A DNA stretch of 64,000 bases. Source: Eledone cirrhosa (taxonomy: Eukaryota). A program made the translations under genes and the position numbers. Location: the NCBI GenBank assembly GCA_964016885.1, contig OZ024766.1, positions 2,418,001 through 2,482,000 of the forward strand, in the 5' to 3' direction. Position 1 is the stretch's first letter, and every line of letters begins with the position of its first letter. Of the stretch, positions 33,847 through 64,000 are shown piece by piece. Under the pieces are notes generated by a model. The model searched no databases. It had not been told where the DNA came from and saw only the letters and a list, made by a program, of their open reading frames with translations.

Positions 33847-33852
<6 letters not shown>

Positions 33853-33881
<29 letters not shown>

Positions 33882-34015: not shown

Positions 34016-34084
34016 TCTAGGAAAAATTACTATTTCCCACTGATCGACTGACAGGTGTTTTTACAGTAAATCTACCTTAATCCT

Positions 34085-35562: not shown

Positions 35563-35584
35563 ACTAAAGACAGTCATAATAACA

Positions 35585-36070: not shown

Positions 36071-36200
36071 ACTTACCCTTTTCCCATGTAATCAATGTGT
36101 TGTCTTCTTATATTTTATTAAACAAAGAAATAATCTCCTTGTTGTTGTTTAATTAGAAATGTCAAAGATTGTCTCACCTTTTCTTTGTCCGCCATTGTTG
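36071..36200 (-). promoter_or_regulatory. Putative first non-coding exon of family B (YY1-like AATGGCGG, donor G|GTAAGT at 36076); copies at 47058-47160 and 55223-55350
   Basis: ~350-bp block seen 3 times, each upstream of a family B gene; consensus donor on the gene strand. Confidence 0.55.
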
Positions 36201-37311
36201 TATCTTCTTATTTAGCCACAGATTCGTATCTTGTCACAATAAACAAGTAGAGTTAGCTAGCTTTCTTTAGCCATTGGAATTCGTATATCCTCTGTCTTTC
36301 TCTATCCCTGTACATCTACGATACTCAACTCAAACTCTATCTTTACCATGAATTTGCTTCCTCTCCCACTACACTTCTTGTATACTCAATATTTACATTG
36401 GGTACATCATACAGAGTTACTACCTACACCTTTTCTACATATCAAACAAGGCTACTTCCCAGATGAGATCAAGGTCTTGTCTTCTTTCCTCTTTATGAAG
36501 ACTTTGGTTATTGTCAAGTTTAGTCTAAACATTTTGTAATATGTTTTTGTTTCTAAAGTTAGAATTTCTACTCCAGCCCTTTCACAGATTCAGCCATAAG
36601 AAACAGATCATCAACATACAGAATTTCCCATAGATATTATGTGTTAAACTCCTCTCTTAGTAAACAGAAGTAGGTTCAGTACAGAGTCATGATCAACTGT
36701 TACCTGTACAAGTATTTGTGTTAGATGTATTAAAACTTCTATTGAGATGATATTAATACATACAGTGTTAATAAAAAATACACACTACAACAGGGAGTGT
36801 GGGTGTTGTGCTCTAAATATTTCTTGAGGCCAGTTACAGCATTATGACATGGGATAGAGGGTCCCTCAATTATACCCTACAACAGGGAATGTGGGTGTTG
36901 TCCTCTAAATATTTCTTGATGACAGTTACAGCATTAAGTCAGTTATAGAGGGCCCCTTAACTATACACTACAACAGGGAATGTGGGTGTTGTCAAAAAAA
37001 TATATTTAAGAAGACAACTATCAGATATGAGAATAACTTTAATCTCACCTAAAAGTAAATAAAACAAATGGAAAGCAATATTTGGAGGCTGTAGAAATAC
37101 TAAGGGTTTCCCTGGATTGTTAGTTGACAATAAGTTTATATTTGTAAGGTGAAGGACATGTCCGATTGCGTAGGTCAAAGGTTTCTTGGCTGGTCTCACT
37201 TGGGGATCTAGCAGGATAAGCTGCTTCTGGTAGAATCTACTGGAAGAAATGTGTAAAGATCCTGACCCTCAAACCCTCTCAAGAATAAGTGGGAAAAAAA
37301 GAAGCGTTTTT

Positions 37312-38625
37312 TTAACCAGTGTGTATTCCTTTGTGCTTAGTTAAAGCACCACTAGAGACAAAAGATTTCCCACATATTTCACAATGAAAAGGTTTCTCTC
37401 CAGTGTGTGTTCTTTTGTGTACGGTTAAAGCGCTGTTAATGACAAAAGATTTCCCACATATTTCACAGTGATAGGGTTTCTCTCCAGTGTGACTACGCAT
37501 GTGCACAAGTAGATGAAAATTCTGAGGGAATGACTTTGTACATATTTCACAATGATAGGGTTTTTCTCCAGTGTGTGTTCTTTTGTGGACAAACAAATGA
37601 GTGTTCCTGCCAAAAGATTTCCCACATGTTTCACATTGAAAGGGTTTCTCTCCAGTATGTGTTCTTATATGTACAGTTAAATCACCACTAGTGACAAATG
37701 CTTTCCCACATATTTCGCAATGAAATGGTTTCTCTCCAGTGTGTGTTCTTTTATGTATTTTTAAGCTACAGACAGAGAGAAAAGATTTTCCACATGTTTC
37801 ACAGTGGAAAGGTTTGTCTCCAGTGTGTGTTTTTTTGTGAAGAGTTAAATAACTGCTTTTAATAAAACATTTCCCACATGTTTCACAGTGGAAGGGTGTC
37901 TCTCCGGTGTGTGTTCTTTTGTGTACAGTTAAATCTGTGTTACTGACATAAGATTTCCCACATGTTTCACAGTGAAAGCGTTTTTCTCCCCTGTGTGTTC
38001 TTTTGTGAATAAGCAGATCATCATTTTCAATGAATGTTTTCCCACATGTTTTGCAGTGGAAGTGTTTTTCTCCATTATGACTACCCATGTGGCTAACAAG
38101 ATTGGAATTGCGAGTGAAAGATTTCCCACATATTTCACAGTGAAAGGGTCTCTCTCCTGTGTGTATTTTTTTATGTCCATTTAACCGACTTGTAGAGACA
38201 AAAGATTTCCCACATATTTCACAATGATACATTTTTTCTCCAGTATGTATTCTTTTGTGGACTAAAAGACTATAATTTAGAGAGAAAAATCTTCCACATA
38301 TTTCACAGCAGAAGGGTTTTTCTCCAGTGTGACTTCGTAAGTGCCTAACAAGACTAATTTTCCAAGTGAAAGAATTCCCACATATTTGACAGTGGAAAGG
38401 TTTGTCTTTGGTGTGTGTTTCTTTGTGTGTGCATAATTCATCTTCTGATGAGAAAGTTTCATTACAAATCTCACAGCTATATTCAGGAATATTTCTGTGT
38501 AATGATCCATGTTCAGTACATGTTTCACTAGGTAAAGGTTTCTCACCACTGTATGTCTGTGTAACTGTATCTATATTGGTAGAAACAGGTGTGGTAGAAA
38601 TGTCCAAGGGTTTAACGTCTTCCAT
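37312..38625 (-). CDS. C2H2 zinc-finger protein, family A (14 fingers)
   Basis: ATG at 38625 gives the [10 protein letters not shown] leader shared with paralogs; ORF-track start 38670 is TTG. Confidence 0.92.
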   Translation of the reverse strand: MEDVKPLDISTTPVSTNIDTVTQTYSGEKPLPSETCTEHGSLHRNIPEYSCEICNETFSSEDELCTHKETHTKDKPFHCQICGNSFTWKISLVRHLRSHTGEKPFCCEICGRFFSLNYSLLVHKRIHTGEKMYHCEICGKSFVSTSRLNGHKKIHTGERPFHCEICGKSFTRNSNLVSHMGSHNGEKHFHCKTCGKTFIENDDLLIHKRTHRGEKRFHCETCGKSYVSNTDLTVHKRTHTGETPFHCETCGKCFIKSSYLTLHKKTHTGDKPFHCETCGKSFLSVCSLKIHKRTHTGEKPFHCEICGKAFVTSGDLTVHIRTHTGEKPFQCETCGKSFGRNTHLFVHKRTHTGEKPYHCEICTKSFPQNFHLLVHMRSHTGEKPYHCEICGKSFVINSALTVHKRTHTGEKPFHCEICGKSFVSSGALTKHKGIHTG

Positions 38626-39428
38626 TGTAATTCTTGAAGAATTCTTAAAACTCGAGAAGAGGTATGACAATGTACGAGTGATTTGGGGTAATAAATGGTC
38701 CTCTATGTACTTATATATATATGATCGAAGTTCTGAAGATATATGACTGTGTAAGACTGATGTCGGTATAAGAAAGTGTAAGAGAGAGAGTGTGTGGGTG
38801 TTTGTGTCTTAATAAATCAAGATTGTTTACCCCAGAGTATAAAAAAGTACACAATATCTGCAGTGTTAACAATACAAATAATACGTACTTTATATTTCAA
38901 GTCCAAGTGTAAAGTCAAGAAAGACCAGGAAAGCTAATTGTTCAGATGTTGGTGATTTAAACCTATTTCTCTCTGTCCTGTAAAATGTGGAACAACCAAT
39001 TCAAGATGTAGCGTAGTTTCTCATGAAATGAAATATTTAATCATGTAGGAGATGGAACACCTACCCTGGAACATGTAGCTCACTCTACAGAATATTAACT
39101 TTCACTTTAACATGAGATAATTACTACATATAATTAGATTAATTAATGTTATAATTAAGATAGCAGGTACGTAGTATCGTTGGTAATACTTCATTCTCCT
39201 GAATAACACCGGTGTCATACGTTAAAAGTCCCTGACATAATTTACGACCTTCAGTTATATCAATTCACTCCATCAATTGTATCCAACCCCTGGTAAAACA
39301 AGCAACATCGCCCACTAAAATAACTATTACATATCAACGAGGCTGTCTCTTACCTGGTTGCTCAATGTGTTAGAAATAGCAGTCAACTCACTATTTACCA
39401 TATTACAACGATGGAAAAATACGTTCGG

Positions 39429-40960: not shown

Positions 40961-41157
40961 CCTTTTATATATATATAAATAATATATATATTTATATATA
41001 TATATATAATATATATATTTATATATATATATATAATATATATATTTATATATATATATATAAATAATATATATATTTATATATATATAATATAAACGGA
41101 AAAAATGAAACGATATTTCATTTCCCACTCTTAGTACGGCTGTTACTTAAATATAAG

Positions 41158-41733
41158 TATGTACACGTACATACATATATGTATACAGACGTACAGTAGT
41201 ATGTATATATATATATATACATACATGCACACACATATATATATGTACGTATGGATTTACCGAACATTTATTATAATGCTCGGTGTGTTTGTAAACAAAC
41301 ATCCTGAATTAAGCCGTAGTGTCTAGCAACCATCGTTGCTCGTTTGTTCAACACTGACAAAGGAACGCTGTACTAGTTTCAAGTTTCGGCCGATTAACTC
41401 ACTCGATATGCAAATTAGGCTGCTCATCCGTTAATATGCATAAGGAAAGTATATACTTTCAGACGTTCAATCATCTGGCAGGAAGGTATGTTGCTGACGA
41501 TAGCTAATAAGCTTGAAACTAGTACAGCGTTCCTTTGTCAGTGTTGAACAAACGAGCAACGATGGTTGCTAGGCACTGTACGGCTTGATTCGGGATGTTT
41601 GTTTACAAACACGCCGAGCATTATAATAAATGTTCGGTAAACCCATACGTACATATATATACGTGTGCATGTATATATATAAATATACATACTACTGTAC
41701 GTCTGTATACATATTTGTATGTACGCATACATA
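41158..41733. mobile_element. Foldback element/MITE with ~225-bp inverted arms
   Basis: 41158-41383 is the reverse complement of 41512-41733; 128-bp spacer. Confidence 0.88.
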
Positions 41734-42083
41734 ATTATATATATAATATATAATATTTATATATATAATATTTGCACAGTAATAACTCGTTGAACAATTT
41801 AGAATATTTCTAAAGTAATATACTGCCAATGAGTTACTATTAATAATGAAAATAATCAATAATTTGAAGGAATTTAATAAATAATTAATTTTTTATTCCC
41901 AAGTTGTTGTTTGGTACATTACTGAACAAAAACTTCTGACACAAATTTGTTGTAAGGTTTTTATATATAAACAATTTTGAAAACAGGAAGTTTTGTTTCA
42001 CCAAAGGAGAGGCGGTTTCATGTGGGTGGGTGTTGAAAATGACAAGCAGAAAACAACATGGCAACTTTTAAACATATACGTAT

Positions 42084-43283
42084 TCATACTCCTGTATGAA
42101 TACGTATATGTTTAGCCAAGCTGCTGTTTTGAGAGAATGATTTATCACAGATGTCACAATGATATGGCTTCTCTCCTTTCTGAGTACATGAGTGTGTAGT
42201 TAAATTAGTTTTCTGAGAGAATGATTTACCACAGACATCACAGTGATGAGGCTTCTCTCCTGTATGAACCAACTTGTGTCTCGATAAGTGACTTACCTGT
42301 GAGAATGTTTTGCTACAGATATCACAGTGATGAGGCTTCTCTCCTGTATGATTGTATTTGTGTCTCGTTAAGCTAACCGTATGAGAGAATGATTCACCAC
42401 AGATATCACACTGATGAGGCTTCTCACCTGTGTGGATATATTTGTGTTTAGTTAAATTTCCCTTATCACAGAATGATTTACCACAGACATCACAGTGATA
42501 TGGTTTCTCTCCTGTATGAGTATATTTGTGAGTAGTTAAGCCAGTTGTATGAAAGAATGATTTACCACAGACATCACAATCATATGGTTTCTCTCCTGTA
42601 TGAACATATTTGTGTGTTGTTAAGTTACCTGCTTGAGAGAATGATTTACCACAGACATCACAGTGATATGGCTTCTCCCCTGTATGAATATATGTGTGTT
42701 TATCTAAGCCACCTTTTTGAGAGAATGATTTACCACAGACATCACACTGATATGGCTTCTCTCCTGTATGAACAAGCTTGTGTTTAGTAAAATTTCCTTT
42801 ATCAGAAAATGATTTACCACAGATATGACAGTGATATGGTTTCTCTCCTGTGTGAATATATTTATGAGTAGTTAAACCTGCTGCATGAGAGAATGATTTA
42901 CCACAGATATCACAGTGATAAAGTTTCTCTCCTGTATGAATAGATTTGTGTGTCGTTAAATGATCCTTTTGAGCAAATGATTTACCACATGTATCACATA
43001 GATATGGCTTTTCTCCTGTGTGAATATGTTTGTGTTTCATTAAGTTACCTTTATCAGAGAATGATTTATCACAGATATCACATTGATATGGTTTCTCTCC
43101 TGTATGAGTACGTTTGTGTGTTATTAACCGACTAATGTGAGGAAATGATTTATCACAGGTCTCACAGTGATATGGCTTTGCTCTGGTGTGAGAATGTTTG
43201 TGTTTTATGAGGCTATCTTCTCGGGAGAATGATTTACTACAGAATTCACAGTCGTATGATAATGTTCCTACTTGCTTTGACAT
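42084..43283 (-). CDS. C2H2 zinc-finger protein, family B (14 fingers, finger 13 lacks last His)
   Basis: ATG at 43283 (MSKQVG) aligns with MSKANG/MSKEIG of paralogs; frame stays open ~45 codons upstream. Confidence 0.9.
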
Positions 43284-43777
43284 CTCTTCAGGTAAAAAGG
43301 ATAAATCTGAAAATGATGCTAATTCCTTTGTAAATTCCTCCAAATTTAATAAGAATGCAATATCTTCTTGTACACTTTCCAGATACTGAAGAGGAGAAAT
43401 TTTTCTATGAACTTCAGTTCAGAAGAAATATTTCACTGTAATCCACCAAATGTTGATATAAAATGGTTCAGGTTAGTTCTGCGTAAAATATTCTTTTAGT
43501 TGTTTAAAAGATGCTATTGATGATATAGCTGAAGTTAAACTCTCTCCTCTGTCAATGTCAGGTGATATTCTGAAATAACAGAGAAACAAAATATGATATA
43601 GAGGAGAGGATATTAAAATGTTGTGATTCAACAATGGGAATTATACAAAATTTCTATATCGATAAACTGTAAAAACTTTCACCTAAATAATTTAACTTTT
43701 CAAATATATCCTTATATCTTAAAGTCTAAAAGTGTGTTTGTGTGTATATATATAAATATATATATATACGTATATAC

Positions 43778-44510
43778 GAAGCTTGCATGCTCCGCTGGAT
43801 GTGTAACAGTAATATACGTGAACGGCAAAGCATAAACGAACTAAGGAAAAAATTAGAAATAAGAGGGATCAGATGTTGTTTACTCGAGAGAAGACTATGT
43901 TGGTACGGTCACGTGATGCGCATGATAGACGACAGCTGTATAACAAAGTGCAGGGCAATAAAGATAGACGGTAGCCACGGAGTAGGCAGACCCAGAAAAA
44001 CATGGGACGAGCTGATAAATTCCGACCTCACACGCTTACACCTCTCCAAGACAATGTCACTGGACCGAGACCTTTGGCGGTACTCAGTAATAGAGAAGAC
44101 CCGCCTTACCTAAATACAAAGTAAAAACCTACTACAGTCAGTAGGCACCTCTATCAAAACACACCCCCGTCCCACCACCTCCACCCCACCCACACCGCCC
44201 CTTTCAATGTAAAGTTATGTTGGTGCCACAAAATCCAGGCCGAAACAAATGAGATCGTGTAGGTGTCACGACAAAAAAACACACAGTCCACGCTGTAATG
44301 TGGCCGTGTAGGCAACACGGTAAAAACCTCCCAGACCCACACTGTAAACGTGGTTGATGTTAGGAAGGGCATCCAACTGTAGAAAGCCTGCCAGACAGTC
44401 CTATGCGAGCAAGACAACCACTCTTGCCTCAAGTGGGAAAACCCCCGTCCAAACCCATGCAAGCGTGGAACACGGACGCTAAACCTGATGATGATGATGA
44501 TGATGATGAT
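43778..44510 (+). mobile_element. RTE LINE 3' remnant with (GAT)n tail
   Basis: MLRWMC...RRLCWYGHVMRM...GRPRKTW...DRDLWR, 3'UTR and tail. Confidence 0.88.
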
Positions 44511-45120
44511 ACATTCATCCATCCATCCATATCCAGTTTTGGTATTTAGGGTGCTGCGGTTGCCCTGGACTCCGAGGTAGACAACGCCAGGCAATGTCTC
44601 ACAGTCGCTCTCCATGAATTTCTGTCCACAGTATCGACATCGGCCAAGTTCCACTTATATAAATCACTCTTCACCCACTCCAACCACGCCTTCCTTGGTC
44701 CGCCGCGATCTCTGGGGCCAGGGATTGCCAAGTGAGTGATGGAGTTGATGTATGGCGTGGTTCGCTGTACATGTCCTTACCAACAGAGACGCTGTGTGTG
44801 AAGGACAGCAGTGATCTCATCCCCACCCAGCTTCTGGTGCAGCACAGTCGAGGAGCCCACCAGATAATAGAACGGGAGAATTTGTCAAAAGCTATCTCTA
44901 GGTCAACAAAAGCCGAGTACAGGGGTTTACCTTTCATCATCATCATCATCATCATCATCATTTTACGTCCGCTTTTCCCTGCTTGCAAGGGTGGGACGGG
45001 AACTGGTTCTGGCTTGATTTCTACAGCTGGATGCCCTTCCTAACACCAACCTCATTTACAGTGAGTGCTGGGTGCTTTTTTTTTTGCCGTGGCACCTCCA
45101 CGACCACTTTGCAGTGGAAT
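44511..45120 (-). mobile_element. Stacked LINE fragments
   Basis: GPRKAWLEWVKSDL...DRNSWR with (GGAT)n tail; AFVDLEIAFD RT motif; RTE 3' tail with (CAT)n. Confidence 0.7.
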
Positions 45121-45495
45121 GATAGGGACCCCGGTCCCTATCATCTCATTTCTACAGCTGAGTAAACTGGAGCAATGTGAAATAAAGTGTCTTGCTCAAG
45201 GAAACAACACATCAGCCGGTCTGAGAATTGAACTCACAACCTTTCGATTGCAAGGCCAATGCTCTAACCAGTAAGCCATGTGCAGGGAAAAAGCGGACGT
45301 AAAATGAAATGATGATGATGTCACTCCACAGTACATCAATATATATATATGTATCTGTATGTCTCTTGCGTTGGAAAAGAGGTCAATTATGTGTACAAAC
45401 ATTGAAAAATGCTCCGAAGACTCCAAGCCGAGGTTTGGATGAAACAATTCTAAGTGAATAAATGCTTCGAACATAGCTTTGATTCTTGTGAATTC

Positions 45496-45532
<37 letters not shown>

Positions 45533-46430
45533 TTATATTTATGGTGGTTTCGATTGCCTCGACTTAGTTCACCATAGAAAACTGCCCATAGCAGAGAAGA
45601 CTTCCGGTGCCCTAAGACTACCTCCCACCTCACCACCATTGTTACAGTGTTGGCTACCCACAGGTGTGAGGCTCGTGAATTGGAATGGCTCTTCCTGTCA
45701 TCTCCCTCAGCATGCTTCAGGGAAGCGCCTTCTTTATTCTGTCCGCTGGGGCTTATAATAATTGTTTCTACGTTAGGCACAAGGCCAGCAATTACCCAGT
45801 GTATTACTGGTACTTTATTTTAGCGACCCCGTAAGGATGAAAGGCAAAGTCAACCTCGGCGGGATTTGAACTCATATCGTAAAGGGACGTAACTCTATGC
45901 TGGAAAGCATGGCGTCCGACCCTCTACCGATCTTTTGGCACAAGGCCAGCGATTACTCCAGTGCATTACTGGTACTTTATTTTATCGACCCCGTAAGGAT
46001 GAAAGGCAAAGTTAACCTCGGCGGGATTTGAACTCAGAACGCAAAGAGCCGTAACTCTATGCTGCAAAGCATGGTGTCTGACGCTCTACCGATACTGCCA
46101 AACCCCACCGGAGTGGGAGAGAGATGGAGGCAGTGACAGAGGCTGTTTAGTATGAGTTCGGACCTGGAGTAAATATCTTTCAGACAGACAAACATTCACA
46201 CTGGGGTTGTGTAGTTACGAACAGATTAAACCCATCATTTCTGCTAGTTTTGAAAGAGATATTCGTTCAAAATACATCTAAAACAATTGGAAAAACATAG
46301 ATTCCCCACCAGAAGCGGGGCGTGGCAAGGTGTAGATTGTAAAACAAGTTACCGGAAAGTGTACATAAAAGTGACGAGGAAGAATTTTATGGAAGAGGCG
46401 ACGTAGCCGGTCCCGGTAAAATAGACCCCC

Positions 46431-46932
46431 AGGCTATGTAGCCGTTAAGATTGTCAGACAACATTAATTACGGCCCTTTACGGTCCGAGTTAAGTCAATT
46501 TGAAATCTTTTCCACCATCAATTGTTAAAAAACAACTTAAAACGTACGTTGGACTTTAGTTACACACACACATATATATATATATATACAGGTAAATACA
46601 TATAAACAGAAGTACACATACACACACACACATCTACACATAAATATACAAACATATACAGACACCAGAAGTACACACACATCTACACATAAATATACAA
46701 ACATATACAGACACCAGAAGTACACACACACATCTACACATAAATATACAAACATATACTGACACCAGAAGTACACACACACATCTACGCGTAAATACAT
46801 ATTCCTAGACACATTATACAAAATAATTATCACATACACACACATCTATGAATGAATAAGGAAGGAACGGGCTGGTGAAACACTATAGCGATATGTGTTG
46901 CGTCCCTTTAGGGTTTACCGGCTACACAGCCT
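46431..46932. mobile_element. Probable MITE with 18-bp TIRs and an internal ~50-bp CA-rich tandem repeat
   Basis: aggctatgtagccgttaa vs ttaccggctacacagcct; interrupts the family B upstream block. Confidence 0.5.
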
Positions 46933-47259
46933 ATTCGAATATGTTTGCCCAAAGTTGTTAAATATTTTCACTTGTATATAATTACTGTATCGTTGAAAGG
47001 TTCACATAATTCTATTATTTACACACATTATTATAGACTTCAAGTAAATCTTTCTCAACTTACCCTCTTCACATGTAATCAATGTGTTGTCTTCTTATAT
47101 TTTATTAAACAAAGAAATAATCTCCTTCTTGTTGTTGAATAAGAATTTTCCACCCAATTAACGCCAGAGAAAGTGCTTCTCCCCCACAATTAAAACAACA
47201 GTAGAGCTAGCTTGGTATTTTTAGCCACAGAAATACGTATCTATCTATTTCACTTTTTC

Positions 47260-47310: not shown

Positions 47311-47819
47311 ATTTATATATATATTGGAAAAGTATAAAAACAAAAACAATAACAAGGAATCAAGTACGAACCGCTTTCAGCCTAAACGGGATCTTAGATC
47401 CCGTTAAGGGTGAAAGCAGCGATTCTTTGCTTAAACTTTAATCTGTTATTTTAATAAATATTTGCTCTACGGTTCTTATATATTTGATATATATTTATCC
47501 TTATCGAGCCCTCTTTGGATCTTAGTCTTAAATTTTTTTTATTATTTGGCAGTATCGGACGCCATGTTTTCGAGCACAGTTACGTCCCTTTACGATCTGA
47601 GTTCAAATCCCGTCGAGGTTGACTTTGCCTTTCATCCTTACGGGGGTCGATAAAATAAAGTACCAGTAATGTACTGGGGATATTTGCTGGCCTTGTGCCT
47701 AGAGTAGAAACAATTATTACTATATATATATATAGGAGGTCTGTTGCATTCTAGTTCGTATTCCAACATTTTCTACCTTAGTCATCTACGTTATCATCAT
47801 ATATATATATACATATATA

Positions 47820-48720
47820 TATGTCCGTTCTTCCACGCTAGCATGGGTTATCCTATTGAGAGCAGTGTCCGGTCGGCTGACCTTGTCTTGCTCATACGGG
47901 AACTGATTTTGGCTTGATTTCTACAGCTGGATGTCCTTCCTAACACCAACCTCATTTACAGTGAGTACTGGGTGCTGACTATTTTACAGTGTGGACTGGG
48001 TACTTTTTGTTGTGACACCAACATGACCACTCTACAGTGTAGACTGGGTGTTGTTTGTTGTGACACCTACATGACCACTTTACAGTGTAGACTGGGTGCT
48101 TTTTGTTGTGACACCTACATGACCACTTTACAGTGTGGACTGGGTGCTTTTTGTTGTGACACCTACATGACCACTTTACAGTGTGGACTGGGTGCTTTTT
48201 GTTGTGACACCTACATGACCACTTTACAGTGTGGACTGGGTGCTTTTTGTTGTGACACCTACAAGACCACTTTACAGTGTGGACTGGGTGCTTTTTGTTG
48301 TGACACCTACATGACCACTTTACAGTGTGGACTGGGTGCTTTTTGTTGTGACATCTACATGACCACTTTACAGTGTGGACTGGGTGCTTTTTGTTGTGAC
48401 ACCTACATGACCACTTTACAGTGTAGACTGGGTGCTTTTTGTTGTGACACCTACATGACCACTTTACAGTGTGGACTGGGTGCTTTTTGTTGTGACACCT
48501 ACATGACCACTTTACAGAGTGGACTGGGTGTCTTTTGTTGTGACACCTACATGACCACTTTACAGAGTGGACTGGGTGTCTTTTGTTGTGACACCTACAT
48601 GACCACTTTACAGTGTGGACTGGGTGCTTTTTGTTGTGACACCTACATGACCACTTTACAGTGTGGACTGGGTACTTTTTGTTGTGACACCTACATGACC
48701 ACTTTACAGTGTGGACTGGT
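47820..48720 (-). repeat. RTE 3'UTR with 48-bp minisatellite (~15 units)
   Basis: Same unit; flank matches 205-370. Confidence 0.9.
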
Positions 48721-48944
48721 GGGAGGGGTGTTTGGGGATTAGAAAGGTGTCTAAATGGGTGTGTGTGAGGAGTATGGAAGGGATGGTGAAGGTGGTACTT
48801 GCCTTATGCTTCAGTCTTAGCATATTTCCTGTCTTAGATACAACATACATAAGTTCTTTGGAAGAATGCTTTTATTAAAAATAAAACAATATCAAATTAT
48901 CTCACCAATATCAGACATAGCTGTAATTATAGTGTTTGAGGCTT

Positions 48945-49600
48945 GTTATTCAAATCCCGTTGAGGTTGACTTTGCCTTTCATCCTTACGGGGGTCGATAA
49001 AATAAAGTACCAGTAATACACTGGATGATTGCTGGCCTTGTGCCTAAAGTAGAAACAGTTATTACAGGGTCGATAAAATAAAAGTACCAGTAATACACTG
49101 GGTGATTGCTGGCCTTGTGCCTAAAGTAGAAACAGTTATTACAGGGTCGATAAAATAAAAGTACCAGTAATACACTGGCCTTGTGCCTAAAGTAGAAACA
49201 GTTATTACAGGGTCGATAAAATAAAAGTACCAGTAATGCACTGGGGTGATTGCTGGCCTTGTGCCTCAAGTAGAAACAGTTATTACAGGGTCGATAAAAT
49301 AAAAGTACCAGTAATGCACTGGGGTAATTGCTGGCCTTGTGTCTCAAGTAGAAACAGTTATTACGGGGTCGATAAAATAAAAGTACCAGTAATGCACTGG
49401 GGTGATTGCTGGCCTTGTGCCTCAAGTAGAAACAGTTATTACAGGGTCGATAAAATAAAAGTACCAGTAATGCACTGGGGTGATTGCTGGCCTTGTGCCT
49501 CAAGTAGAAACAGTTATTACAGGGTCGATAAAATAAAAGTACCAGTAATGCACTGGGGTAATTGCTGGCCTTGTGCCTCAAGCAGAAACAGTTATTACAG
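48945..49600 (+). repeat. SINE with its 3' ~78 bp tandemly repeated 8 times
   Basis: gggtcgataaaata at 48991, 49067, 49144, 49210, 49288, 49366, 49444, 49522. Confidence 0.9.
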
Positions 49601-49941
49601 TGTAGTACCTTTCCTATGGCATGGTATGGTACTGTAACTCCTGATAGAGTCGCAGAGATGCCGAACTGGCATACAGAAATTCTTAGGCATTTTAAGCGTG
49701 GTGGAGCCCATCCCCCTCCAGGGCCGAGTACAGCAGATTTCTTCTAAAGAGAGGAAGAATCGACCCCAGTACTAGACTGGTACTTTTTTTTACCGACCTT
49801 GAAACGATGAAAGCCAAAGTGACCTTGTTAGGACTTGAACCGAGAGAATAAAGGGCCGAAACGAATACCATAAAGCATTTTATCCAACGTTCAAACAATT
49901 CTGCTAATTCACCGCCTATATGTTGATATATTCATGGTTAA

Positions 49942-50557
49942 CTCGCAGTGGTACCCGGCGTTGCACGGGATAAAAGTTGGATTTTCTTTGCTCCCGGTAT
50001 GAAAAAGAGACTGACTAATACATAGTTACAATTTCAAGGAAATCAGTCTGACGTAACGCCTCAAAAAACCCCTAAAAAGCTGGAAAAACGCAGTTTTTCA
50101 CCTAATGCGGGCCTTAGGAGATCAAAAAGTTGAATTTTTTATGTGCATATCACTCCCTGAAACATAAGTAATACACATGTAAAGTTTGAAAAAAATAGGT
50201 TGGGTACTTCTCGAGTTTTAGGGATTCAAACTCACAGACACACACACACACAGACAGACATCCTCAGGGAAGTGATGTAATGCAGACAGCCAGACATACA
50301 GACAGATATTATAAGGGCGCGACGTTATATGTATGTATCTATCTAAAAAGAGAAAGACTAAGAATTATAGATAAAGATCGCTAAATCGCCTAATACGGTC
50401 TTTAGGGCATAGAAAATTTGAAATTTTTTTGGCTCAGAACACTCCCTGAAACATAAGTATTACATGTGTAAAGTTTGAAAAGAGTCGGTTGGGTGGTTCT
50501 CGTGTTTTAGGGATTCAAACTCACACACACACACATCCTCAGTTTTATATATAGAGA
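49942..50557 (-). mobile_element. Non-autonomous Helitron-like element
   Basis: 5' A|TCTCTATATATAAAA, CA microsatellite, 3' hairpin CCCGTGCAACGCCGGG then CGAG|T (CTAG variant); no TSD. Confidence 0.7.
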
Positions 50558-50597
50558 TAAGACAATAGTTTCATTCAATGATTCTTGATACTCACAG

Positions 50598-51545
50598 TTA
50601 CACTTCTGTATGAATACAGTCATGTGTAGTTAATTTGCTTTTTTGAAAGAATGATTTACCACAGATATCACACTGATGAGGCTTCTCTCCTGTATGTATA
50701 TATTTGTGTTGAGTTAAGTGATCATTTCGATAGAATGATTTACCACAAATATCACAGGGATATGGTTTGTCTCCTGTATGAGAATATTTGTGTGCAATTA
50801 AGTTACCTGTATGAGAAAATGATTTACCACAGATATGACAGTGACATGGTTTCTCACCTGTGTGAATATATTTGTGTGTAGTCAAGTTACTTTTCTGAGA
50901 GAAAGATTTGCCACAGATATCACAGTGGTATGGTTTCTCTCCTGTATGGATATATTTGTGTTTAGTTAAGTGATCATTCCGAGAGAAGGATTTACCACAA
51001 ATACCACAGTGATATGGTTTGTCTCCCGTATGAATGTGTTTATGTACAGTTAAGCTAACCGCCTGAGAGAATGATTTACCACAGATATCACAATTATATG
51101 GCTTCTCTCCTGTATGTATATATTTGTGCTTAGTTAAGTCACCTGCTTGAGAAAATGATTTACCACAGATGTCACAGTGATATGGTTTCTCTCCTGTATG
51201 TATATATTTGTGCGTAGATAAGCTGTCTGTCTGCGAGAATGACTTACCACAGATATCACAGTGATATGGCTTCTCTCCTGTATGAATATATTTGTGTCTA
51301 TTCAAGCCACCTGTATTAGAGAAAGATTTACCACAGATATCACATTGATAAGGTTTTTCTCCTGTATGGATATATTTGTGTGTAGTTAAGTGACTTAATT
51401 GAGAGAATGATTTACCACAAATATCACAGCTGTACGGTTTTTCTCCTGTATGAATACGTATGTGTGTAGTGAGATTGTTTTCTCTAGCGAATGATTTACC
51501 ACAGATATCACACTGGTACAATGATTTTCCATTTGCCTTCGACAT
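50598..51545 (-). CDS. C2H2 zinc-finger protein, family B (11 fingers)
   Basis: ATG at 51545 (MSKANGKS); 11 fingers with [11 protein letters not shown] linkers. Confidence 0.9.
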
Positions 51546-52415
51546 CTCTTCAGGAAATATCAATCTTTTAAGTCTCTCTAATATTTTCCCACAACACAAA
51601 ATAAGGATACTTATTTTTTGGTCTCTTTTTTATAGTTTATCCCCAACAAATATTTCCAATGTTAAATTTCCCTCAACTCTAATCTTTGTTGACATCTGAA
51701 AATGATGCAAATTCCTTTATAAATTTACCCAAGTTTAATAAGAATACAATATCTTCTTCTACACTTTGCAGATAGTGAAGAGAAATCTGTCCATGTATCT
51801 CAATTCAGAAGAAATATTTCACTTTAGTTCACCAAATGTTGATATAAAAAGACTTATATGACTACTGTGTAAAATCTTTGGCCATCTAATTGATGATATT
51901 GATGATGTATTTGAAGTTAAAGATTCTCTTCAGTCAATGGCATGTGATATTCTGAAAGAAAACAAGATATAGAGGATATTAAAATATGACTCAACAGTGG
52001 AAATTACACAACATATATATATTGATAAACTATATATAGAAACATTCACCTGAATAATTGAACTTATCCAAAGCATCCTTCAAATTTTATGGTCGAAAAT
52101 ATATATCATCATCACCACCACCACCACCACCACCACCATCTTTAAATCTGTTTTTCCATGCTTACATGGAAGAATTTAATAAAACATCTAACTTTTTAAT
52201 TCCTAATCTGTTGATTGTTGGTTCATTACTTGACAAAGATTCTGACATAAAATTGTGTCGTAAGGTTTTGATTTTAATATATGAGAATTTTAAAAATGGA
52301 CAGTTTTGTTTCACGGAAAAAGAGGCAGTTACAGGCAGGAGTGGGGGGACATAGTCAGCAGAAAACATGATGACACTCTGCAAGGCAACATTCCAACATT
52401 TTTACAGGTAGATAT

Positions 52416-53531
52416 TTATACACCAGTATGAACATGCATATGTGTAGCTAAAATACTTTTACGAGAGAATGATTTAGCGCAGACATCACAGTCATATGGT
52501 TTCTCTCCTGTATGAACAGTTTTATGTCTAGTTAAAGTAGCAGAATGAGAGAATGATTTACCACAGATATGACAGTGATATGGTTTCTCTCCTGTGTGAA
52601 GATATTTGTGTGTAGTTAAGTTAGTTTTCTGAGAGAATAATTTACCACAGACATCACAGTGGTATGGCTTCTCTCCCGTATGAATAGTTTTGTGTTTCGT
52701 TAAGTTAGTTTTCTGAGAGAATAATTTACCACAGACATCACAGTGATATGGCTTCTCTCCTGTATGAATAGTTTTGTGTTTCGTTAAGTTTCCTTTTTCA
52801 GAGAATGATTTACTACAGATATCACAGTGATATGGTTTCTCTCCTGCATGAACATATTTATGTGTAGTTAAGCCAGCAGTATGAGAAAATGATTTACCAC
52901 AGACATCACAGTGATATGGTTTCTCTCCTGTATGAATACGTATGTGTTTCGTTAAATTGCTCGATACAGTGAATGATTTACCGCAGATCTCACAGCTGTA
53001 TAGCTTCTCACCTGTGTGAATATATTTGTGTGTAGTTAAGTGACTTCTATAAAAAAAGGATTTACCACAGATATCACAGCTATACGGCTTCTCTCCTGTA
53101 TGAATGCGTATGTGTTTTGTTAAATTGCTTGATATGGTGAATGATTTACCACAGATATCACATCTGTGTAGCTTCTCTCCTCTATGAATATATTTGTGTG
53201 TCATTAAGTTCGATGAATGAGAGAATGATTTACCACAGATATCACAGTGATGTGGCTTTTCTCCTGTATGCACAGATGCATGTGCGGTTAAGTGACAAGA
53301 TAGCGAGAATGATTTACCACAGATATCACAGTTGTATGGCTTCTCTCCTGTATGAGTATATCTGTGTGTAGTGACGCCACTTTTTTGAGAGAATGATTTA
53401 CCACAGATATCACAGTGGTATGGTTTCTCTCCTGTATGAATACGTTTGTGTGTGGTTAGTTGACATTTTTGTGAGAACGATTTGCCACAGATATCACAGT
53501 GGTATGGTGATTTTCCTATCTCCTTTGACAT
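52416..53531 (-). CDS. C2H2 zinc-finger protein, family B (13 fingers)
   Basis: 371-aa [18 protein letters not shown]... Confidence 0.92.
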
Positions 53532-53920
53532 ATTTTCGGGAGATTTATCAATCTTTGAAAATTATTTAATGATTCATTTTCCCAGGATGATTTCTTTGTT
53601 TTTATAGTTTACTTCTAACAAATATTTCCAATGTTAATTTTCCCTCAACTCTGATCTTTGTTGACATCTAAAAATGATGCAAATTCCTTTATAAATTTAC
53701 CCAAGTTTAATAAGATGCAATATTTTTACTACACTTTCCAGATAGTGAAGAGAAAGTTATCTATGTACCTCAGTTCAGAGGAAATATTTCACTTTAGTTC
53801 ACCAAATGTTGATATAAAAAGACTTATATGACTACTGTGTAAAATCTTTGGCCATTTAATCGATGATATTGATGATGTATTTGAAGTTAAAGATTCTCTT
53901 CAGTCAATGGCATGTGATAT

Positions 53921-53945
53921 TCTGAAAGAAAACAAGATATAGAGG
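53921..53945 (-). promoter_or_regulatory. Conserved splice acceptor of family B coding exons (exon starts 53921, 51951, 43569, 32885)
   Basis: Pyrimidine tract + TTTCAG|AATATCAC at all four family B genes. Confidence 0.7.
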
Positions 53946-54175
53946 ATATTAAAATATGACTCAACAGTGGAAATTACACAACATATCTATATTGATAAAC
54001 TGTATATAGAAACCTTCACCTGAATAGTTGGAATTTGTCAAATGTATCCCTCATATTTTAAAGTATGAAAGTATACACATACATACACACACACACACAT
54101 AAATGAAACAAAAGCAGGGATGCAAAAACACAAGGTCATATTAGTTTAATGCTTGGAGGAAGTGGAGGAGGGTTT

Positions 54176-54204
54176 GACGTTTCGGACAGAAGTCCTTCAT
54201 CAGG
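54176..54204 (-). ncRNA. Minimal hammerhead ribozyme motif (Penelope-type)
   Basis: CUGAUGA-AGGAC-UUCU-GUCC-GAAAC-GUC; stem I pairing poor. Confidence 0.6.
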
Positions 54205-55951
54205 AAAGTTTGAATCAAGAGCAAACAGGTGGATGTGTGAAAGTTAGGAAAAGGGGGCTGGGAGGAGATTGATAGGTTGGGGTTGGGGCTGAAGTAGCGG
54301 GTCTGGGGTGTGTGTGTGTGCCAAAGGGATAAAATTAGTATACACCATATCATAAATGATAGAAACAATACAGAAGCCATATATATACATACACACATAT
54401 ATGAAACTATAATTGTTTTTTCTTTTGGCACAAGGCCAGCAATTACCCCAGTGTATTACTGGTACTTTATTTTATCGACCCCGTAATAATTGTTTCTACT
54501 TTTGGCACAAGGCCAGCAATTACACCAGTATATTACTGGTACTTTATTTTATCAAGGATGAAAGGCAAAGTTAACGTCGGCCGGATTTGAACTCAGAACG
54601 CAAAGGGCCATAACTCTATGCTGTAAAGCATGGCGGCGTCTGACGCTCTACCGATACTGCCAATTCACCCACCGCGCTTATATGAAACTATAATTGTTGC
54701 TACTTTTTGGCACAAGGCCAGCAGTTACCCCAGTGTATTACTGGTACTTTATTTTATCGACCCCCGTAAGGATGAAAAGGCAAAGTTAATCTCGGCGGGA
54801 TTTGAACTCAGAATGGCAAGGGACGTAACTCTTTGCTTGCAAAGTATGGCGTCTGACCCTCTACCAATAATGGCTTCTGATTTAGGAATAGAACCATCAA
54901 CTTTAGGATGAAATCAACTCCAGTATATTACTGCTACTTTATTTTATCGACACTTTAAATATGATAACACATAAAAAAAAAAAAAAAATGAATACCCCCC
55001 CCCCCCCCCGAAATCGAGGGGGGGGGGGGCTATAATAAAACCCAAATAAGATAACATTTCAGTCTAGAAGTATTTTCCTGTATATAAAAGTGACGAGGAA
55101 GAAATATGTCCAAAGTTGTTAAATATTTTCACTTGTATATAATTACTGTATCGTTGAAAGGTTCACATAATTCTATTATTTACACACATTATTATAGACT
55201 TCAAGTAAGTAAATCTTTCTCAACTTACCCTCTTCCCATGTAATCAATGTGTTGTCTTCTTATATTTTATTAAACAAAGAAATAATCTCCTTGCTGTTAA
55301 ATTAGAAATTTTAAAGATTTCATCAGCTTTTCTTTGTCCGCCATTAACGTTGGTGTATCTTCTTATTCTTTAGCCACAGATTCGTAACTTGTAGCAGTAG
55401 AGCTAGTTTTCTATCTTTAGCCACAGGAGTTCGTAGATATATATTATATATATATATATATATACATATATAATCAGTGAAGGCGCATGGCTTAGTGGTT
55501 AGAGCAGTAGGCTTGCAATCGAAAGGTTGTGAGTTCAATTCTCGGACTGGGTGATGTGTTGTTTCCTTGAGCAAAACACTTCATTTCATGTTATTCCAGT
55601 ATACTCAGCTGAAAACGAGTAACAGCAATAGCTGGAGGTTTAACCCTGTGATGGACTGGCGTCCTGTCCAGGGGGGAGTCTTGTACTCTTAGTCACTTCA
55701 CTTCATGCCATGAAACTTTGTCCTCAACCTAGTATTAATTGCTATATTATCAATACATTAGTATACTTTTCTTTTTCTTTAAACTAAAACCACTAATTAA
55801 AATACATCAAATAAGAGATGCTGGGAAGAATTGTGTTAGTAAATGTCAGATAGGTAAATGATAGATTTATATCTTAATGGATAAACAACCTGCTAATGAA
55901 ATTAATATGCAAGTGGCTGAGTATTCCCAACGTGTTTTCTTAACATAATTC

Positions 55952-56440
55952 TCAGGGGTGGTTCAGATTCATCACAGGCAAGGAACACCAGTACAAATTC
56001 TTCTGGGTGGGTAACAAAAATGGGGTGAGTGGAGTAGGAATGCTCCTTGCTGAGAGATAAGTGGACCAGGTAATTGAGGTAGTCAGAGTGAGTGATAGAA
56101 TAATTAAACTTAGACTAACCTTGGGCAATACTACAGCCACTATACTACCAGTATATGACCCACAAGCTGGGCTTGCTGATGAACAAAAAGACCATTTCTA
56201 CGAAGCCCTCCTACAGACTACCTCAATGACAGATGACATTGATCTTATGATCGCAGCTGGTGACTTCAATGGACATGTTGGGAAACATCAGGAGAGATTC
56301 CCTCCTGGCATACATTGAAACTACGGTTACAGAAGAAGAGATGAGGATGGGTCTAGGCTTCTGAAGTTCTGGGAAGCTCTTAACTTAATCTGCAACACAT
56401 ACTTCAGGAAACTGGTCAACTCCCTGGTCACTTACCAATA
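55952..56440 (+). mobile_element. RTE LINE AP-endonuclease fragment (degenerate)
   Basis: GVGMLL...VSDRIIKLRL...VYDPQAG...AGDFNGHVG...CNTYFRK with stops. Confidence 0.85.
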
Positions 56441-56862
56441 AAGAGAATAAAACCGAATGGACTTTGTTACCTTTTAAATGTTTTTGAGGCAAGCCAAGGC
56501 TTGGCATTACATCCTGGAATAGAGTGTCCCTTAATTACACATAACAACAGAGAATGATCTTTCCGGCTAAAAAGTACTGAAATTTCTCCCATAGATAAAA
56601 AGAGAATTTAAAAAGACAGGGATATATATGGGCAAGATTTTAATTTCAAATGAAAATAAATTTGAAAGAATGACAAGCAATGTTTGGAGTCTGTTAAACT
56701 GACAAACATTCACATTTGATGTTGGTGAAGAATAAGTTTAGAATTATCAGAGGAAGGATATCTCATGTTTCACAGTTAAAAGGTTTCCCTCCATTGTATG
56801 TGTTGTATCCAACTATTTCTAGAATCAAAATCTCTGCATATTTCAGAGTGACAAGTTTTTTC

Positions 56863-58089
56863 TTAAATGTGAGTTCTTTTGTGTGAATTTAAATTACTTT
56901 TATTAAGAAAAGATTTTCCACATATTTCACAGGGGAAATGTTTTTCGCTTGTGTGTCTTCTTTTGTGCGTATTCAAGTCACTTCTTGTGACAAAAGATTT
57001 CTCACATATTTCACATTGGAAGGGTTTCTCTCCTGTGTGACTTCGTACGTGGATAACAAGACAAGAATTCCGAGTGAAAAATTTCCCACACATTTCACAG
57101 TGGAAGGGTTTTTCTCCAGTGTGTGTTCTTTTATGTCTATTTAAATAACTGTTAATGATAAAAGATTTCCCACATATTTCACAGTGGAAATTTTTTACTC
57201 CAGTGTGTGTTATTGTATGTGTAATTAATTCACCGTTAGTAACAAAAGATTTCTCACATATTTCACAGTGGAATTTCTTTTCTCCTCTGTGTCTTTTCAT
57301 GTGTTTATTCAAGTCACTGCTTGTAACACAAGATTTCCCACATATTTCACAATGAAAGGGTTTCTCTCCAGTGTGTATTCTTTTGTGTGCGGTTAAATTA
57401 CCGTTTTTCACAAAAGATTTACCACATATTTCACAATGGAAGGGTTTCTCTCCAGTGTGTATTCTTTTGTGAGATATTAAGCAACTGTTAGTGACAAAAG
57501 ATTTACCACATATTTCACAATGATAGGGTTTCTCTCCAGTGTGTGTTCTTTTGTGCGTATTTAAGTCACTGCTTGTAACACAAGATTTCCCACATATTTC
57601 ACAATGAAAGGGTTTCTCTCCAGTGTGTGTCCTTTTGTGTACAGTTAAATTACAGTTTTTCCCAAAAGATTTTCCACATATTTCACAGTGGAATGGTTTT
57701 TCTCCTGTGTGAATACGTATGTGGTAAACAAGATGAGACTTTTTAGGGAAAGATTTCTCACAAATTTCACAATGAAAAGGTTTCTCTCCTGTGTGACTTC
57801 GTATGTGTTCAAGAAGATGAGAAGTTTTAGTGAAAGATTTCCCACATATTTCACATTGGAAGGGTTTGTCTTTAGTGTGTGTGTCTTTGTGTGTGGATAA
57901 TTCATCTTTTGATGAGAAAGTTTTCTTACAAACCCCACAGCTGTATTCAGAAATATTTCTGTGTATTGATCCTTGTTCAGTACATGTTTCCCTAGGTAAA
58001 GGTTTCTCACCACTGTATGTCTGTGTAACTGTATCTATATTGGTCGAAAAAGGTGTGGTAGAAATGTCCAAGGGTTTAACGTCCTCCAT
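56863..58089 (-). CDS. C2H2 zinc-finger protein, family A (13 fingers)
   Basis: 408-aa ATG ORF with [10 protein letters not shown] leader. Confidence 0.92.
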   Translation of the reverse strand: MEDVKPLDISTTPFSTNIDTVTQTYSGEKPLPRETCTEQGSIHRNISEYSCGVCKKTFSSKDELSTHKDTHTKDKPFQCEICGKSFTKTSHLLEHIRSHTGEKPFHCEICEKSFPKKSHLVYHIRIHTGEKPFHCEICGKSFGKNCNLTVHKRTHTGEKPFHCEICGKSCVTSSDLNTHKRTHTGEKPYHCEICGKSFVTNSCLISHKRIHTGEKPFHCEICGKSFVKNGNLTAHKRIHTGEKPFHCEICGKSCVTSSDLNKHMKRHRGEKKFHCEICEKSFVTNGELITHTITHTGVKNFHCEICGKSFIINSYLNRHKRTHTGEKPFHCEMCGKFFTRNSCLVIHVRSHTGEKPFQCEICEKSFVTRSDLNTHKRRHTSEKHFPCEICGKSFLNKSNLNSHKRTHI

Positions 58090-59227
58090 AGTAATTCTTG
58101 AAGAATTCTTAACAATTGGGAAATATCTGTGTTTATAATATATAACAGTTCAGTTTCTTGTCTTAGATATCATAGGACTATGTTTACATGTGGAAAATAT
58201 GCAATGTAGATATATTTTCTACATACCACTAGCATTCTTGTAGCAAAGTGAGTCCTCTCCAAGTGCTACATATATATTGATGTAGAGGAAAATACTTCTA
58301 TTTTTTTGTTAAGAAAGGTGGCTATAGTTAATGGATGCTATGTAGTCTAAAACAAGATGTTTTGTCTATAAATGACCGATAGCAGATGTTCTGGTCAAAG
58401 TCGTCCTTCTACAGATTATAATGGAACTCTCAGTTGACACAACTGTAAAGTAAGAATAGACATGACAGTATAAGACTGATGACCGGAAATAATGTGTGTG
58501 TGTATATATTCGGGATGAGGTGGCAGAATATATGATCGTGTGTTTATTTCTGTATACGTGTGTTGACCTAATAAACCAGGCTTGTTTACCACGGAGTGTA
58601 GAAAAGTACACAATATCTGCTGTGTTAACAATACAAATAAGACGTACTTTATATTTCAAGTCCAAATGTAAAATCAAGAAAGACCAGGAAAGCTAATTGT
58701 TCAGATGTTGGTGATTTAAACCTATTTCTCACTGTCCTGTAAAATGTGGAACAACCAATTCACGATGTAGCGTAGTTTCTCATGAAATGAAATATTTAAT
58801 CATGTAGGAGATGGAACACCTACCCTGGAACATGTAGCTCACGCTATGTTATCTACAGAATATTAACTTTCACCTTAACATGAGATATAATTAGATTAAC
58901 TAAAGTTATAATTAAGAGAGCAGGTACGTGGTGTCGTTGGTAATGCTTCACTCTCCTGAATAACACCGGTGTCATACGTTCAAAGTCCCTGACATAATTT
59001 AATACCTTCAGAAAGACCTTCAGTTATATCAATTCACTCCATCAATTGTATCCAACCCATGGTAAAACAAGCAGCATCACTCAGTAAATTATTTATTACG
59101 TATCAACGAAGGAGTCACTTACCTGGTTACTTGACCTGGTAGAAATAGCAGCCAAATATCCCTCTAGCTCTAAATAAACATCGGCCATATACTGCAGTTT
59201 AGTCATACATAAACACACACTCACGTG

Positions 59228-61962: not shown

Positions 61963-62652
61963 TGTGTGAATTTCCTGAGTCATTAGAATATCTGATAGAA
62001 TACTTTGCAGTATTTGTTTCAGCTCTCTACTCTCTCAGTTCAAATCTCACCTAGGTCAACTTCTCCTTTGAGGTCAATAAACAAAGGTACCAGTCTAATA
62101 CTGGTGTCGACTCTTCCTCTTTATCTCTTTCTCATTCACTCTCAATAATTCTCTGGAAGAAATCTGCTGTATTCAGACCTGGAGAGGAGATGGGTCCTGG
62201 CAGGTTATATAATACCCTAGAAATAACCTATGTCAATAGGTTGCTACTACGACTCCCTCAGGAGTTACAGGTCCATACTAGTAACATCAGAGATAAATTG
62301 GAAGCCCATGCTTTACCCCAGGTGATGGAAGGACCCTCAATTACACACAGTACCAGGAAATGTTGCTGTTGGCAAACAAGAGGCTGAAATTTCTGGCAGA
62401 GATTTAAAATGAATTCAAAAAGTCAAGAATAGATCAGAGAAAGATTTTAATTTCAAATGAAAATATATTTGTAAAAATGGCCAGCAATGTTTGGAGTCTA
62501 TCAAACTGTCAAGTATTCACATTTGATATTGGTGGAAAATAAGTTTAGATTTGTAAGAGGAAGGATGTTTCATGTTTCACAGTTAAAAACTTTCCTTCCT
62601 CTGTATGTTTGTGTCTAAGTAACTGTCAGAGAAAAAACATTTCCCACATATT

Positions 62653-64000
62653 TCAGAGTGTAAAACGTTTTTTACCAGTGTGTGTTATTTTGTGTTTAAT
62701 ATATTCACCATTACTAGTGAAAGATTTCCCACATATTTCACAGTGATAGGGTTTCTCTCCAGTGTGCCTTCTTCTGTGAACTAGAAGAACAGCACTATCA
62801 GCAAAAGTTTTCCCACATATTTCACAGTGGAAAGGTTTTTCTCCAGTGTGACTACGTATGTGCCGAACAAGATCAGTTTTCTCAGCAAAAGATTTCCCAC
62901 ATATTTCACAGTGGAAAGATTTTTCTCCAGTGTGATTACGTATATGCCTAATAAAATTGGAATTCAGTGTGAAAGATTTCCCACAAAGTTTACAGTGATA
63001 GGGTTTTTCTCCAGTGTGTGTTCTTTTATGTACAGTTAAATAACTGCTAGAAGCAAAAGATCGCCCACATATTTCACAGTGGAATGAATTTTCTCCAGTG
63101 TGACTACGTATATGTCTAAGAAGATTAGATTTCACAGTGAAAGCTTTCCCACATATTTCACAATGAAAGGGTTTTTCTCCAGTGTGTGTTCTTTTGTGTA
63201 GAGTTAAATTTCTGTTAGAAGCAACAGATTTCCCACATATTTCACAATGATAGGGTTCCTCTCCAGTATGTGTTCTTTTATGTACAGTTAAATCATTTCT
63301 TTTCATAAATGTTTTCCCACATATTTCACAGTGATAGGGTTTCTCTCCAGTATGTCTTCTTTTATGAACTGTAAGTACAGCATTATCAGCAAAACATTTC
63401 CCACATATTTCACAGAAGAAAGGTTTTTCTCCGGTGTGAATACGTATATGCCTAACAAGATGAGCTTTCTCAGCAAAAGATTTCCCACATATTTCACAGT
63501 GGAAAGGTTTCTCTCCAGTGTGGGTACGTGTATGCTTAACAAGATTAGCTTTCTCAGCAAAAGATTTCCCACATATTTCACAGTGAAAACCTTTTTCTCC
63601 ACTGTGACTACGTATATGCCTAATAAAATTGGAATTCAGCGTGAAAGATATACTACATATTTCACAGTGGAAGGGCTTCTCTCCACTATGTGTCTTTTTG
63701 TGTCTATTCACGGCACTATTACGGGCAAAAGATTTCCCACAAATTTTACAATGATAGGGTTTTTCTCCAGTATGTGTTCTCGTATGTAAAGTTAAATTTA
63801 TGTTAGAAGCAAAAGATTTCCCACATATTTCACAGTGATAGGGTTTGTCTTTAATATGTATGTGTTTGTGTGTGGATAATTCATCTTCTGATGAGAAAGT
63901 TTTCTTACAAATCTCACAGCTATATTCACAAATATTTATGTGTAATGATCCCTGTTCAGTACATGTTTCACTAGGTAAAGGTTTCTCACCACTGTATGTT
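62653..64000 (-). CDS. C2H2 zinc-finger protein, family A (15 fingers), 5' end outside the window
   Basis: Frame open from the window edge ([20 protein letters not shown]...) through 63711 to TGA at 62653. Confidence 0.9.
   Translation of the reverse strand, partial: TYSGEKPLPSETCTEQGSLHINICEYSCEICKKTFSSEDELSTHKHIHIKDKPYHCEICGKSFASNINLTLHTRTHTGEKPYHCKICGKSFARNSAVNRHKKTHSGEKPFHCEICSISFTLNSNFIRHIRSHSGEKGFHCEICGKSFAEKANLVKHTRTHTGEKPFHCEICGKSFAEKAHLVRHIRIHTGEKPFFCEICGKCFADNAVLTVHKRRHTGEKPYHCEICGKTFMKRNDLTVHKRTHTGEEPYHCEICGKSVASNRNLTLHKRTHTGEKPFHCEICGKAFTVKSNLLRHIRSHTGENSFHCEICGRSFASSSYLTVHKRTHTGEKPYHCKLCGKSFTLNSNFIRHIRNHTGEKSFHCEICGKSFAEKTDLVRHIRSHTGEKPFHCEICGKTFADSAVLLVHRRRHTGEKPYHCEICGKSFTSNGEYIKHKITHTGKKRFTL

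Follow-up and report, generated by a model that had tools for sequence, protein, structure and literature searches.

ANG and RNASE4 are tandem paralogs, each with a single coding exon. Together with HOXC4/5/6 and CPNE1/RBM12 they are among the pairs described as sharing a promoter or first exon, for which polyadenylation and splicing were named as the likely deciding steps (PMC2568002). Clusters of 3' tandem cassettes, or alternative last exons, are described for Drosophila PGRP-LC, pip, and CG42235 (PMC6191721; PMC9013439). At the Drosophila loci lola and mod(mdg4), about 20–30 variable exons are joined, partly in trans, to a coding BTB region that stays constant; for lola, most isoforms were detected in every projection neuron rather than a single one in each cell (PMC1947980). 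Expansions of C2H2 zinc-finger genes in coleoids are known and are treated as whole-gene duplicates (PMC9068888, PMC12513265), and octopus splicing overall was reported as ordinary (PMC9699675). Here, a window of 64,000 nucleotides (nt) of the Eledone cirrhosa genome (contig OZ024766.1, positions 2,418,001 to 2,482,000) was analyzed; the window is the whole stretch considered, and all coordinates refer to it. It is a dense tandem C2H2 zinc-finger cluster of two families, A and B, and the subject of this work is the pair of family B genes B1 and B2, which lie behind a single leader block, D1. Judged from its sequence, B2 is a coding exon under selection that has no family leader to itself, and this layout is real. 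Splicing of a known kind would be the likeliest explanation, with a recent loss of the leader as a serious rival.

Pairs of the ANG/RNASE4 type are closest to B1/B2 in logic: a non-coding 5' exon is common to coding sequences that are wholly different. Those pairs, however, are transcript-proven and conserved in mammals, whereas the B1/B2 arrangement is deduced from a single assembly, and its coding parts are poly-zinc-finger arrays. With the 3' tandem cassettes the locus shares homologous terminal exons in tandem, B1 and B2, each with its own 3' splice site. One upstream donor would serve both, and the choice of exon would be coupled to polyadenylation. It differs from them in that the common part is non-coding, each cassette encodes a whole protein, and there are only two cassettes; competing RNA pairing of the PGRP-LC/Dscam type was not found at B1/B2 in the regions examined. 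As in lola and mod(mdg4), alternative 3' exons with different zinc fingers would follow common 5' exons, but there are two exons and no constant domain. A locus of the lola/mod(mdg4) type was ruled out, as B1 and B2 have no constant coding (BTB) exon and the seven short upstream open reading frames (ORFs; 3–21 amino acids) in each of the modelled leader-exon mRNAs all stop before the finger ATG. Dense clusters of multi-finger C2H2 genes are a trait in common with the coleoid expansions.

Acceptors, leaders, and the space before B2

All four family B genes are encoded on the minus strand, to which the splice coordinates below refer. The acceptor TTTCAG/AATATCAC (slashes mark splice boundaries) occurs exactly four times in the window, both at zero and at one mismatch, once ahead of each family B ORF, as the initial annotation had described. 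The first exon bases after it are 53921 (B1), 51951 (B2), 43569 (B3), and 32885 (B4). The leader block with the donor G/GTAAGT is present three times, with last exon bases at 55229, 47064, and 36077. Profiles of three leader parts were searched with nhmmer --max, and each gave three strong matches (E ≤ 3e-23), which are the training copies; the next best match had an E value of 0.017, and none with E < 10 was located between 52415 and 51952. Motif and profile searches thus agree with the earlier count of three leaders, with no fourth. B3 (42084–47242, donor 47064, acceptor 43569, ATG 43283, 399 amino acids, 13 fingers) and B4 (30998–36290, donor 36077, acceptor 32885, ATG 32212, 404 amino acids, 14 fingers) each have their own leader and served as controls.

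D1 (55229–55438, minus strand) is likely a promoter-proximal non-coding first exon, with its donor G/GTAAGT between 55229 and 55228. Its homologs D3 and D4 lie at 47064–47242 and 36077–36290 (minus strand). The motifs TGGCTAAA and CTAGCTCTACT are present in all three leaders, and ATGGCGG, which we take to be YY1-like, in D1 and D4 only. From this organization we infer that the leader block is the first exon spliced to the family B acceptors. Alignment of D1, D3, and D4 defined a near-invariant donor core (55107–55292, minus strand, in D1), which comprises the exon end and the first ∼120 nt of the intron. Within the last 10 leader positions, D1, D3, and D4 are told apart by single bases. Pairwise identities were 180/186, 181/186, and 179/182 (97–98%), whereas the coding exons preceded by these cores (55292–55107, 47127–46946, and 35959–36140 read from 36140, minus strand) are at most 80% alike, pointing to gene conversion or strong constraint on the leader core. 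An Rfam scan of 50000–56600 returned five matches, all below the gathering score, and the D1 donor core corresponds to no known Rfam RNA; unusual folding of the donor core was not seen (z = 0.11, 2.02, and −0.12). The putative intron 1 of 1307 nt (53922–55228, minus strand) contains repeats resembling short interspersed elements (SINEs) at 54398–54967, with four AATAAA hexamers inside them. A hairpin of a C-run and a G-run is located at 54992–55033, ∼200 nt behind the D1 donor, and is absent from the other two introns.

The B1 coding exon (52416–53921, minus strand) has a 390-nt 5' untranslated region (UTR) behind its acceptor, followed by an ORF of 371 amino acids with 13 C2H2 fingers (ATG 53531, stop 52416–52418). 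The distance from 52416 to the B2 acceptor at 51951 is 465 nt, which leaves a gap proper of 464 nt; the coordinates given previously were correct, and the profile search was blank in this interval. The gap is made up almost entirely of two homologous parts. Its B1 side (52167–52415, minus strand) is the 3'UTR of B1, with ATTAAA at 52278, 52200, and 52180. In it, 52375–52167 matches the 3'UTR of B3 with a score of 168 against a shuffle maximum of 50, and the ATTAAA at 52200 aligns with an AATAAA of B3 at 41897. Its B2 side (51952–52103, minus strand) is an intron tail, homologous to 53922–54075 in B1 and to the intron tail of B3. The remaining 63 nt (52104–52166, minus strand) hold a (GGT)n microsatellite at 52113–52138. 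Because the gap consists of the B1 3'UTR and the intron tail with 63 nt to spare, there is no room for a family leader, and on these sequence matches B2 has neither such a leader nor the space for one. Four promoter-side motifs seen at the family leaders were searched for in the gap, and none was present. The gap has a GC content of 0.32 and an observed/expected (o/e) CpG ratio of 0.25.

Integrity and ancestry of B2

The coding exon of B2 (50598–51951, minus strand), which lacks a family leader, has a 406-nt 5'UTR, the ATG at 51545, the stop codon at 50598–50600, and 315 codons for 11 fingers. Both B1 and B2 were identified by test as Krüppel-type tandem C2H2 proteins with repeated C-x2-C-x12-H-x3-H units and TGEKP linkers (9/12 in B1; 8/10 in B2, where the other 2/10 are TGDKP). 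All 11 fingers and all 10 TGE/DKP linkers of B2 are complete. The ratio of nonsynonymous to synonymous substitution rates (dN/dS), pooled from pairwise finger counts within each array, so that the pairs are not independent, was 0.10 at framework positions of B2 and 1.15 at base-contact positions. Framework values of B1, B3, and B4 were 0.36, 0.35, and 0.16, making B2 the lowest of the four family B genes. In simulations of neutral decay with 5% substitutions and added indels, none of 5000 runs kept all 11 B2 fingers; 3/5000 did so at 5% without indels, and 95/5000 at 2%; these rates were assumed, guided by the divergence of the 5' parts of B1 and B2. By these measures, B2 is under purifying selection. 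The low framework dN/dS and the survival of the fingers beyond the neutral simulations argue that B2 was translated through most of its history. As a side observation, a weak donor-like site ACT/GTGAGT lies at 50595 (minus strand), 2 nt past the B2 stop (rough score 1.9); if used, it could yield a spliced B2 3'UTR that escapes nonsense-mediated decay.

The initial annotation had described 51630–52055 as a duplicate of 53610–54025. The duplication was confirmed, and its extent was found to be larger: 52103–51514 aligns to 54075–53500 over 576 columns with 56 substitutions and 9 indel events, and a BLAST match continues through the arrays at 80% (50597–52103 against 52583–54075). Identity between B1 and B2 is uneven, with ∼75% in the part of the intron tail farthest from the acceptor, 197/200 around the acceptor itself, and ∼90% further into the 5'UTR. 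A run of 125 nt across the acceptor (53862–53986, minus strand), which takes in the first 60 nt of the exon, is identical in B1 and B2; none of 20,000 permutations gave a run as long, and it is likely a gene-conversion tract. D1 is closest to D4 (55044–55438 against 35896–36288, ∼400 nt, 88%), and both leaders are situated 1.0–1.4 kb behind a family A gene (56863–58149 and 37312–38808, respectively). The B1 exon, in contrast, is closest to B2 and B3, so leaders and coding exons differ in their genealogy.

Proposed splicing of B2 and competing explanations

The most economical reading of this sequence is that donor 55229 serves both 53921 and 51951, acceptors of identical sequence that are separated by 1970 nt and have one leader block ahead of them. 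Whether it in fact joins one or the other, with B1 and B2 as alternative last exons encoding two different proteins, we regard as evenly balanced. Transcription would begin with the D1 leader. Most molecules would have donor 55229 joined to the nearer acceptor 53921, giving the 13-finger B1 protein, and would by default be cut at the B1 ATTAAA signal near 52200, with cleavage near 52180. In a minority, the polymerase would pass this non-canonical signal while B1 had yet to be defined as the last exon, and the donor would then be joined to 51951, giving the 11-finger B2 protein. The single base by which the B1 signal differs from the AATAAA of B3 is a weak hint for such read-through. Because the leader contributes no common protein domain, the B1 and B2 outputs would be two different proteins, exclusive per transcript, not per cell. 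The proposal in the initial annotation that the donor is spliced to 53921 or 51951 thus has economy, selection on B2, and the missing room for a leader in its favor, and faces leader loss or a first exon ending at 52049 as other possible routes.

Its further statement that one promoter selects between the arrays was overstated. Since the acceptors are identical, the balance between B1 and B2 would depend on how strong the poly(A) site is and on elongation, and not on a dedicated selector. Docking-site pairing of 55300–55044 with the acceptor regions gave best duplexes of −17.8 (B1) and −16.6 kcal/mol (B2), which in these regions, the only ones compared, were no better than shuffles (20/40 and 31/40 as good, respectively). 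With acceptors identical over 125 nt and no pairing above shuffles, the sequence gives no sign of a regulated choice. Inverted SINE-like arms (47555–49603 against 54397–54830; up to 85 nt, 85–100% complementary) enclose B1 and B2 as a pair and cannot direct a choice between the exons. In a long transcript these arms around both genes are a possible double-stranded editing substrate.

Several observations weigh against a shared donor. A junction at either acceptor was not seen, as far as the joints listed from sequencing runs (below) go. The identical acceptors would be expected to favor the proximal one, and the first AATAAA or ATTAAA after the B2 stop is at 48876, 1.7 kb on. The donor-like site at 52049 would offer B2 another route through a private mini first exon. 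Near the ATG, B1 and B2 are only ∼70% identical. The B2 fingers have their best nucleotide matches (78–90%) scattered over B1, B3, B4, and B2 itself, with B1 matched no more often than B3 and B4. A copy of the B1 3'UTR was not found after B2 (local score of the flank 27, shuffle mean 28.7), which rules out a simple head-to-tail duplication of B1 into B2. As far as these matches go, B2 is a paralog of long standing whose acceptor was converted, not a clean tandem copy, and this fits an old gene with a deleted leader. The family A genes A2 (ATG 16856) and A3 (ATG 22486) also have no CAG/GTAAG family donor, and selection on B2 gives no date for the loss of a leader.

Sequencing runs were uninformative on splicing at B1 and B2. 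A run search with 50560–54000 listed 24 runs, none an RNA holder of this sequence: 21 were guessed to be RNA (0.08–0.13 of words) and 3 were of unknown kind (0.33–0.45); these word shares are no measure of B1 or B2 expression. Contigs of four of the 24 were placed on 50200–55900 (likeness 84). Unrelated finger and repeat contigs dominated, and no orthologue was visible among the 32 pieces listed, each of at most 153 nt with 14–27 differences. Of 1863 joints, 15 were listed, none of them at 55229, 53921, or 51951. Coverage was low in the leader bin 55166–55356 and zero in the intron bin 54211–54401, in 4/4 runs each, and no reading was drawn from this.

We consider it somewhat unlikely, though a serious rival, that B2 is a gene in its own right, and an old one, which recently lost its promoter, its leader, and the greater part of its intron through a deletion at the microsatellite 52113–52138, or that these parts are missing there in the haplotype or assembly. 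B2 would then be silent now, or made only as trace mis-splicing. The array and 3' flank of B2 do resemble an old separate lineage, the junction is a microsatellite, and a recent loss would keep the ORF intact with no special splicing. Two of the seven family A genes are likewise without the family leader donor. The deletion, however, must have ended just behind the B1 poly(A) region and yet have spared the intron tail and, as B2 shows no visible decay, it must be young. Since 5' modules have been exchanged and lost in this cluster, an origin of B2 without a leader and a later loss of its leader are both plausible.

A start of its own for B2, in the gap or inside B1, is doubtful. B2 would then have a private short first exon, with 52049 joined to 51951, or its 5' end would be unspliced. 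The best donor-like site in the gap, CAG/GTGAAT at 52049, would define an intron of 98 nt, the distance from there to the acceptor; its rough score is 5.0 versus 6.4 for D1, its B1 counterpart at 54019 scores 3.6, and B3 has none of at least 2. The gap, however, is derived from 3'UTR and intron, AT-rich, poor in CpG, and devoid of family A or B leader motifs.

It is improbable that B2 is present solely as the 3' portion of RNA reading through from B1, unspliced or spliced from 52049 or 52165 to 51951, and is poorly translated or degraded. An intron located over 50 nt past the B1 stop would invite nonsense-mediated decay, and purifying selection on the B2 fingers is not explained by such a tail alone. 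Consistent with it are the B1 signals, all of the ATTAAA type, the presence of 52165 as a second donor-like site in the gap beside 52049, and the long 3'UTRs that are the outstanding trait of the Octopus vulgaris transcriptome (PMC9699675). Long-range skipping to 43569 and later cassettes, which had also been suggested, was rejected as unsupported, B3 and B4 each having a leader of their own.

The surrounding cluster and wider meaning

The window contains 11 complete finger ORFs and a twelfth cut by its right edge, with a GC content of 33–47%. Seven complete ORFs belong to family A and four to family B; the eighth family A finger ORF (62634–64000, minus strand) has one frame open and leaves the window at the right end. 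An exact-sequence look-up in a protein collection found 0/6 window proteins. The finger style and the repeats look octopod. The homolog search returned generic finger proteins, and the 120 listed included one Octopus bimaculoides entry (61%), which did not exceed a lizard entry at 62%, so that this search does not point to any one organism. A0, A1, and A2 (1–16000) form young, near-identical tandem units of 5.3–5.4 kb, with C-terminal fingers in common and different N-terminal fingers. The family A leader donor CAG/GTAAG is present in five of the seven genes (A0, A1, A4, A5, and A6). In A2 and A3 it is replaced by a common block richer in CpG (17440–18261 and 23060–23894, minus strand; o/e ∼0.96) without a strong donor-like site; it may act as a substitute promoter, or the two genes may be another instance of leader loss. 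Between B3 and A5, an inverted repeat of ∼600 nt (41148–41743) is 82% self-complementary, and we presume it to be like a miniature inverted-repeat transposable element.

A wider scheme can be imagined for cephalopod C2H2 clusters, in which a near-invariant and portable module, the non-coding leader, supplies several whole-protein finger cassettes by regulated last-exon choice, an inverted counterpart of the protocadherin arrangement. We regard it as highly improbable. Its possible traces are the donor cores at 97–98% identity versus coding exons at no more than 80%, and A2 and A3 without the family donor. If it were true, isoforms would account for many of the C2H2 "genes" that have been annotated in their thousands, and poly(A) or splice control could let cells change between DNA-binding arrays.

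A single two-way choice of a known type at B1/B2 would not surprise a splicing specialist. Splicing of the expanded C2H2 family is not discussed in the available portions of the cephalopod papers cited (PMC9068888, PMC12513265), and the main text of PMC12513265 contains no occurrence of "splic," "exon," or "promoter." The listings of the literature searches contained no report of leaders shared between cephalopod C2H2 genes or of alternative last exons in their clusters, and PMC4136775 and PMC2865497 held nothing of relevance. Fusion transcripts were removed from the long-read annotation of PMC9699675. If the 55229–51951 junction exists, annotation pipelines would count such cassettes as single-exon genes or drop the junction as a fusion. 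In that case splicing, beyond whole-gene duplication, would add DNA-binding arrays to the cephalopod C2H2 family.

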